Of a DNA stretch of 64,000 nucleotides, positions 61,324 to 61,495 are shown one piece after another (positions within the stretch are counted from its first letter, which is position 1; every line of letters begins with the position of its first letter). The translations under genes and the position numbers were made by a program. The stretch is from positions 224,001 to 288,000 of the forward strand of contig CAXXFK010000028.1 in the NCBI GenBank assembly GCA_963663965.2, written 5' to 3'. The notes beneath the pieces are model-generated. The model did not search any database. It saw only the letters and a list, made by a program, of their open reading frames with translations, and had not been told where the DNA came from. Source of the DNA: Sedimentisphaerales bacterium (GTDB lineage: Bacteria > Planctomycetota > Phycisphaerae > Sedimentisphaerales > SM23-30).

Positions 61324-61397
61324 TGGGTGGGGATACAGGAGTCGAACCTGCGGCATCCAGTTTCAAGCTGGCGCTCTACCAGTTGAGCTAATCCCAG
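61324..61397 (-). tRNA. tRNA-like element (pseudo-tRNA): 4-bp anticodon stem, loop CTTGAAA, encoded CCA
   Basis: CTGGGAT TA GCTC AACTGGTA GAGC G CCAG CTTGAAA CTGG ATGCC GCAGG TTCGACT CCTGT ATCCCCA C CCA. Confidence 0.75.
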
Positions 61398-61425
61398 GGA
61401 GTTGGCACAACGGGCCAACCGGGTG

Positions 61426-61495
61426 TTATCGATACGGGATTCGAACCCGTGTTTGCAGTAACGAACTGCCGCTCTACCTGCTGAGCTAATCAAAA
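61426..61495 (-). tRNA. tRNA-like element (pseudo-tRNA) with shortened anticodon arm
   Basis: TTTTGAT TA GCTC AGCAGGTA GAGC G GCAG TTCGTTA CTGC AAAC ACGGG TTCGAAT CCCGT ATCGATA A. Confidence 0.7.

Follow-up and report, generated by a model that had tools for sequence, protein, structure and literature searches.

Two tandem tRNA-like units are very probably modules of a conserved slipin-linked RNA in a Sedimentisphaerales bacterium

A 64,000-nt stretch of the Sedimentisphaerales genome assembly GCA_963663965.2 (contig CAXXFK010000028.1, positions 224,001 to 288,000; below, the window) carries at 61324-61495 two elements that look like tRNAs with anticodon arms of 15 nt. This locus raises the question of whether they are tRNAs, remains of tRNAs or parts of something else. 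The original prediction had described two elements with intact elbows and short arms; ARAGORN, the Rfam tRNA model and a parse of the arms all found them, on the minus strand, as unit A (61425-61495) and unit B (61324-61397). ARAGORN labelled the two units tRNA-Thr (CGU) and tRNA-Ser (UGA), and the Rfam scores of 49.0 bits for A and 43.5 bits for B were above the gathering score of 29.

In unit A, the D arm lies at 61486-61471, the 4-bp arm in the anticodon position at 61469-61455 and the T arm at 61450-61434; the corresponding parts of unit B are at 61388-61373, 61371-61357 and 61351-61335. By the parse, both units have U8 and A9, a 4-bp GCTC/GAGC D stem, a GG-containing 8-nt D loop and G26, and in both the T stem is paired at all five positions below a TTCGA loop. 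The anticodon-position stem has 4 bp and a 7-nt loop (GCAG/CTGC in A, CCAG/CTGG in B). The D-to-T spacing is short, 20 and 21 nt in the two units as compared with 23 nt in 28 of 28 tRNAs of the same genome measured with the same parser. At the acceptor base, both have GAT/ATC inside an uninterrupted run of 5 bp, and the top is mismatched or open (6 of 7 pairs in A, 5 of 7 in B). Unit A has no CCA, a U at position 37 and a possible fifth pair inside the loop (5 bp with a 5-nt loop). Unit B has C73 followed by an encoded CCA at 61326-61324, in the canonical 74-76 register, a canonical-looking loop with U33 and A37, a non-standard A15/C48 contact, and a 5-nt variable loop instead of a long variable arm despite its UGA triplet. 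A 6-bp spacer hairpin (61401-61419, minus strand) separates the units. Folded alone, A+B had a minimum-energy structure of -51.1 kcal/mol that was not the double cloverleaf (-45.3 kcal/mol), and the folding z-score of 61290-61540, which spans both units, was -0.5. A permuted, YrlA-like fold reached -29.6 kcal/mol as against the -45.3 kcal/mol of two cloverleaves; parse and fold energies thus agree with the earlier statement that the arm order is normal, unlike that of YrlA.

The short arms are real, because contigs from the source sample and from other studies show the same arms. The source-sample contigs (X1, X2) were identical to the assembly over the units. An RNA library from another study yielded a 252-nt contig that spans 61290-61540 without substitutions and with a single base inserted at 61328, in the acceptor end of unit B; this contig, which has a depth of 3.1 and may derive from DNA, hints at transcription of the region. 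In a 151-nt contig that a third study provided, the sole difference is at 61364, in the middle of the anticodon position of B; as the depth is 2, it is possibly an error. We therefore rejected an assembly error as the cause of the short arms. The pieces listed for runs X4 and X5 included no further long one within the surrounding 20 kb; since missing coverage is no proof, this was not counted as selective expression.

Units A and B are very probably non-decoding modules of one conserved, slipin-linked RNA of ~590 nt. This scaffold RNA extends over about 61004-61589 on the minus strand, its ends being inferred, and was defined from an alignment of 24 sequences; in the window it folds with z = -7.6 relative to 60 shuffles. 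In the alignment, a conserved 5' hairpin, P1, is followed by one or two tRNA-like units and then by a closed 3' domain. P1 (61518-61587, minus strand) contains an invariant bulged helix and is supported by alignments, by a covariance model, R1, and by covariation. The 3' domain (61011-61298, minus strand) is closed by a long-range helix pairing ~61298-61284 with ~61025-61011 and has variable long hairpins inside; its fold was stable (z = -7.8 for 61040-61290) and its helices 7, 8 and 10 covary. Together with helix 2, these are the covarying scaffold helices beyond the tRNA stems. Within the units of the 24-row alignment, the D stem does not vary, and covariation is seen at the acceptor base and in the anticodon stem.

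For a structure of 50 pairs, 93.4% of the alignment cells were paired as compared with 81.2% in shuffles and 35-47% in slid controls, and double changes were seen at 32 of the 50 pairs as compared with 20.7 in shuffles (0 of 500 shuffles as high); these controls overstate the covariation, since the aligned sequences are relatives of one another and the same 24 rows, through RNAalifold, had supplied the structure. The R1 model scored 52.7 bits at the window copy of P1, which was in its training set, and this was the sole strong match in the genome. Rfam searches of the window stretch (E <= 10) and of 10 homologous loci (E <= 0.5) returned no convincing match to the scaffold. GOLLD RNA (RF02032) was considered as a candidate and rejected, with no match in the genome at E <= 10. 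A plasmid search gave no long match. We found no description of a ~590-nt scaffold in the literature searched; the 2016 source paper on the b7a-tRNA discussed below, or its supplements, may contain one.

What lies between P1 and the 3' domain behaves as a modular cassette: homologous loci differ there in how many units they have, and additional T-arm hairpins occur (L192, L183, L178, L061, L173, L203 and L207).

The link to slipin was first seen in loci of the neighbouring gene family ORF273, where tRNA-like units sharing a leader stood upstream of slipin genes. In the window, a gene for a slipin-type Band-7/SPFH protein of 367 amino acids (59766-60869, minus strand; Pfam Band_7, PF01145, E 3.7e-30) starts 455 nt after the end of unit B on the same strand. 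A slipin search at E <= 1e-70 matched 55 of 401 genomes from the phylum, including the present one. Of the 29 best slipin loci outside this genome, 28 had P1 or the 3' core motif within 1.5 kb upstream; in the controls, P1 was found in 1 of 29 downstream flanks and 5 of 29 reverse strands, and the core motif in 1 and 0 of 29, respectively. In the opposite direction, a search for P1 in 149 other genomes gave 14 matches. All seven strong ones (E < 1e-6), one of which (G001) was in the training set, had slipin downstream, with a complete unit in six and a D arm alone in one, whereas none of the seven weak ones had slipin or a unit. Four genomes to which ORF273 loci had led, three of them labelled Bacteroidota and one unclassified, gave no R1 match, so a range beyond the phylum is unsupported here.

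The slipin has no predicted membrane helix (maximum 19-residue hydropathy 0.87). Its structural model (mean pLDDT 82) consists of three N-terminal beta repeats, an SPFH domain and a long helix. In a fold search with this model, stomatins were the best matches (Z 16-18 for the SPFH part) as compared with 11-12 for the vault protein, and among the listed matches only chains of the major vault protein (MVP) reach over the N-terminal repeats: residues 5-327 of the model align with MVP 323-689 (rmsd 6-7 A), and the MVP matches taken together have an rmsd of 6-9 A over 222-250 residues. No vault family was among the 8 Pfam families matched by 27 members of the slipin family. We take the resemblance to MVP, which comes from a predicted model, as a lead and not as membership. 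Directly downstream of slipin is a gene fusing RhuM-family and Fic/Doc parts (58654-59661, minus strand), with a terminator-like hairpin (59761-59736) between the two genes. Farther on, two tandem paralogous ORFs for membrane proteins (56323-57126 and 57206-58021, plus strand) end in an H-X9-DG-like motif and had no Pfam match at E <= 0.01.

Read on the minus strand, the locus runs from a predicted promoter and attenuator through ORF93, ORF273, a tRNA-CAU, A, B and the folded stretch to slipin. The tRNA (61625-61696, minus strand; 66.2 bits) is spare and canonical in shape, with a CAU anticodon (Met or Ile2) that four other tRNA genes in the genome also have. ORF273 (61732-62553, minus strand) belongs to an uncharacterised family with 5423 homologues and invariant His/Asp/Glu motifs; it matched no Pfam or NCBIfam family, and the Atlas gives hypothetical clusters alone. 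A scan of genome contigs with the single sequence of ORF273 gave no match, and an alignment-based scan succeeded. The 93-amino-acid ORF (62561-62842, minus strand) could be assigned to no family, and the 162 ORF273 loci searched contained no homologue of it. In Anabaena, alr0739, which might be a homologue of ORF273, is co-transcribed with the slipin gene alr0740.

The region at 63021-63314 (minus strand) is likely a translation-coupled, ribosome-stalling attenuator, as predicted from its promoter, leader frame and overlapping hairpins. The promoter would lie at 63314-63286 (11 of 12 positions of a sigma-70-like site), a short leader ORF ends at 63089, and a terminator (63057-63021) overlaps an antiterminator. 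The 5' strand of the antiterminator begins at or near the stop codon of the leader frame here and in the five other loci with this layout (L002, L173, L183, L184 and L185).

The wider context is RNA repair. The 162 ORF273 loci, namely the best 80 of 555 and the best 80 of 535 confirmed ones together with L002 and L166, were mostly from Planctomycetota where named. RtcB was found in 23 of them, SPFH proteins in 13, TROVE in 12, RlaP in 10, KptA in 6 and RtcR in 4, and many had spare tRNA arrays. In three relatives (G001, G068 and L208), RtcB is next to the Band-7 gene. The nearest relative found, G001, which is of the same family, has rtcR facing away, an attenuator, tRNA-Lys, the scaffold RNA, slipin, tRNA-Leu, an exonuclease-like gene, rtcA and rtcB in this order; G068 has rtcR, the scaffold RNA, slipin, seven tRNAs, rtcA and rtcB (rtcA in both was named by eye from the sequence). 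In the present genome, RtcB is on another contig (C15) and is 67% identical to the copy in the G001 operon; rtcA, the N-terminal sensor domain of RtcR and TROVE (PF05731) were not found with the queries used in this assembly, which is 94.6% complete.

Other tRNA-like elements were seen in such surroundings. One locus (L166, in genome G195) combines TROVE, a tRNA array, a YrlA-like element, a unit with a 14-nt arm and RtcB. On a viral contig (L168), a permuted YrlA-like element adjoins a unit with a 4-bp stem and a 7-nt loop; no slipin was among the ORFs listed for this and another viral match (L169). A second class of tRNA-like units (L023:5702-5770, L057:9432-9503, L136:5703-5774 and L046:3579-3649) has a 4-bp acceptor stem, odd loops and a common upstream motif, near TROVE or RtcB and without the P1 leader.

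What might the RNA do? On balance, and by a narrow preference, we regard A and B as non-decoding modules of an RNA that would display tRNA elbows as the partner of a soluble slipin oligomer in a response of translation stress and RNA repair. The upstream attenuator would permit transcription of the operon when ribosomes stall. A tRNA elbow would form from the invariant D and T loops, and the anticodon-like hairpin would be free to vary in length because the elbow would be the recognised surface; in this lineage, one pair would have been lost. The scaffold would bind to a cage of slipin and offer the elbows to enzymes of tRNA handling or of repair, for example RtcB.

The RNA might instead act in cis, its units serving as processing or regulatory signals in the slipin leader that set the level of slipin mRNA, through cuts of the RNase P or RNase Z type or by sensing a tRNA-binding factor. 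We consider this possible but doubtful. In its favour, the RNA without exception precedes slipin in the same orientation, its elbow is invariant, and CCA occurs at 74-76 in 13 of 35 units and in 12 of 30 last units, B included; compared with 0 of 28 tRNAs of this genome, this register would also fit excision and tRNA-like maturation. In three loci (L171, L172 and L191), however, unrelated sequence separates the 3' core from slipin, which starts ~1.1-1.3 kb farther downstream, and the operon already has its own attenuator or RtcR farther upstream.

Another reading, whose decoy form had been among the options of the original prediction, makes the units decoys or sensors for anticodon nucleases: they would absorb cuts, or yield halves with a cyclic phosphate, which would act as a signal for RtcR and be joined again by RtcB. 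The genes rtcR, rtcA and rtcB flank the RNA in relatives, and position 37 is a purine in 24 of the 26 homologous units with a spacing of 22-23 nt. Anticodon nucleases generally read the loop, but the loop sequence and the arm length appear unconstrained in the homologues: the same 26 units have 18 different triplets in the anticodon position, and one homologous unit has a tetraloop. RtcR was also not found in this genome. This option is therefore disfavoured, and we judge it improbable.

The homologous units bear on decay. Under this explanation, A and B would be pseudogenes from a spare tRNA array, and the match between their arms would reflect a recent duplication. The locus does resemble a reduced array, with its spare CAU tRNA and an ORF273 gene of the kind often found in tRNA arrays; B has the A15/C48 contact, and both variants from other samples are in functional parts of B, one at the anticodon and one at its acceptor end. 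Yet A and B, which are identical at only 50 of 74 columns, have kept all pairs of the D, T and anticodon-position arms, and equivalent units with covarying stems occupy the same scaffold position in many of the phylum's genomes. In most homologues there is one unit, with its arms in the normal order. The T stem was fully paired (5/5) in 36 of 36 tabulated units; as the parser required a near-exact D arm and T loop, the conservation of the loops is partly due to selection of the units. The 35-unit counts leave out one unit (L081), whose locus has no P1 match. Only 6 of 35 units had a full acceptor stem of 7/7 pairs, as compared with 27 of 28 tRNAs of this genome. U33 was present in 10 of the 26 units with a spacing of 22-23 nt (27 of 28 tRNAs), and Y32, U33 and R37 together in 8 of 26 (26 of 28 tRNAs). 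This combination supports non-decoding mimicry, because the T stems are all paired but U33 and the full acceptor are mostly lost. Judging from the homologues, the pseudogene reading is largely refuted and very unlikely to be right, and the earlier view of maintained non-decoding mimics, as opposed to randomly decaying tRNAs, fits the paired T stems, the covarying stems and the rarity of U33.

Least credible of all, despite the ARAGORN calls and the canonical-looking loop and encoded CCA of B, are unusual active decoding or frameshifting tRNAs (Thr-CGU, Ser-UGA), since both units have 4-bp stems and open acceptor tops, A has U37, B does not have the long variable arm that SerRS is described as requiring of tRNA-Ser (PMC5389517), housekeeping genes for a long-arm tRNA-Ser(UGA) and a tRNA-Thr(CGU) are present elsewhere in the genome, and the homologous triplets are diverse.

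For the 15-nt arm itself, the search of homologous loci for the 4-bp stem gave a mixed answer: the arms are genuine, as contigs from other samples show, and relatives mostly have canonical 17-nt arms, which is part of what the original prediction had named as evidence against it. The 4-bp stem with a 7-nt loop was found in 2 of 33 homologous units and in 1 of 6 further complete units (L203), that is, in 3 of 39. The D-to-T spacing in 35 units was 23 nt in 21, 22 in 5, 24 in 4, 21 in 3, and 20 and 18 in 1 each. Among 400 other genomes of the class, a pattern for the short spacing had a match in one, G195, and its reversed control in none. The 15-nt arm was therefore rejected as a conserved class. 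G001 has two units, both with 5-bp stems and 17-nt arms. Unit A was identical to its unit 1 at 52 of 77 columns and to its unit 2 at 45 of 77; for B, the numbers were 56 of 77 and 49 of 78. The CAG/CTG core common to A and B corresponds to the usual CCAGA/TCTGG stem of the family minus the loop-closing pair. The 15-nt arm is probably a tolerated local variant, inherited once through tandem duplication, and not a selected feature. From these comparisons, the simplest history would be one shortening of the arm followed by duplication of the already short-armed unit, giving A and B.

Several known systems resemble this locus. The b7a-tRNA ('b7a' for band 7-associated), predicted by Burroughs and Aravind in 2016 beside Band-7 and RtcB genes, is said in a citing paper to resemble authentic tRNA strongly and to have been without experimental validation at that time (10.1101/312249). 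Compared by that description, A and B match it as what seems to be a tandem short-armed variant: it is a tRNA-like noncoding RNA of normal order that adjoins a Band-7 gene and is tied to RtcB operons. The differences from the description are the two tandem units with 4-bp arms, their ~590-nt covarying scaffold and the unlinked rtcB. No Rfam family for the b7a-tRNA came up in the Rfam scans of the window stretch and the homologous loci. In Pelobacter carbinolicus, the 'mutant tRNA' Pcar_R0061 has U33A, a defective acceptor end and reciprocal stem changes, precedes a stomatin-like gene, rtcA and rtcB, and was judged not to be a pseudogene (PMC3543383). Loss of U33, the defective acceptor, the reciprocal changes and the gene context are all likenesses to our units; it differs as a single unit derived from tRNA-Asn, the protein is called a membrane protein, and section 6 of that account mentions no large RNA around it.

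YrlA (RF02553) is circularly permuted and near Ro60/TROVE (PMC4201824; 10.1101/312249), and tandem tRNAs are among the false positives described for searches with it (PMC4201824). At A+B, the YrlA model scored 31.1 bits as compared with a cut-off of 69; this is such a false positive. We rejected the identity because of this score, the weaker swapped fold and the failure to find TROVE in this genome. Here the order is normal and the partner gene is slipin.

In Anabaena, a slipin gene is described as belonging, together with rtcB and the trn operon, to the regulon of TrcR, which responds to translation stress (PMC10272220). The likeness lies in the joint induction of supernumerary tRNAs, rtcB and a slipin gene under translation stress. 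The trn genes are, in that description, tRNAs under repressor control, in contrast to the predicted attenuator here and RtcR in relatives.

Vaults are described as ribonucleoproteins of MVP, TEP1/TROVE and vault RNA (10.1101/872010). The slipin recalls that composition, being soluble and SPFH-related, with beta repeats, a long helix and a noncoding RNA associated with it; it has three repeats and 367 amino acids, and stomatins score higher, so that this is no more than an analogy. Slipin and the ~590-nt RNA might form a bacterial vault-like particle, in which a large, ornate RNA with one or more interchangeable tRNA elbows on display would be loaded into a soluble cage made on ribosome stalling. 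The cage protein, built like the C-terminal half of MVP, would gather damaged RNAs and repair enzymes. We offer this as a speculative extension that is unlikely as it stands.

By itself, the 15-nt arm has little importance. The tRNA-like part is better seen as an insert, modular and open to duplication, within a covarying RNA of far greater size, in which the D and T loops, the 5' hairpin and the 3' core are fixed and the length and sequence of the anticodon arm and the acceptor end are free. This map of fixed and free parts guides the choice of mutation targets and the probe lengths to be expected. It is also a warning for annotation, as such units are miscalled tRNA-Ser or tRNA-Thr. If it is true that the RNA is the cargo of a soluble SPFH cage, the system would provide a bacterial handle on the function of vault-like particles.
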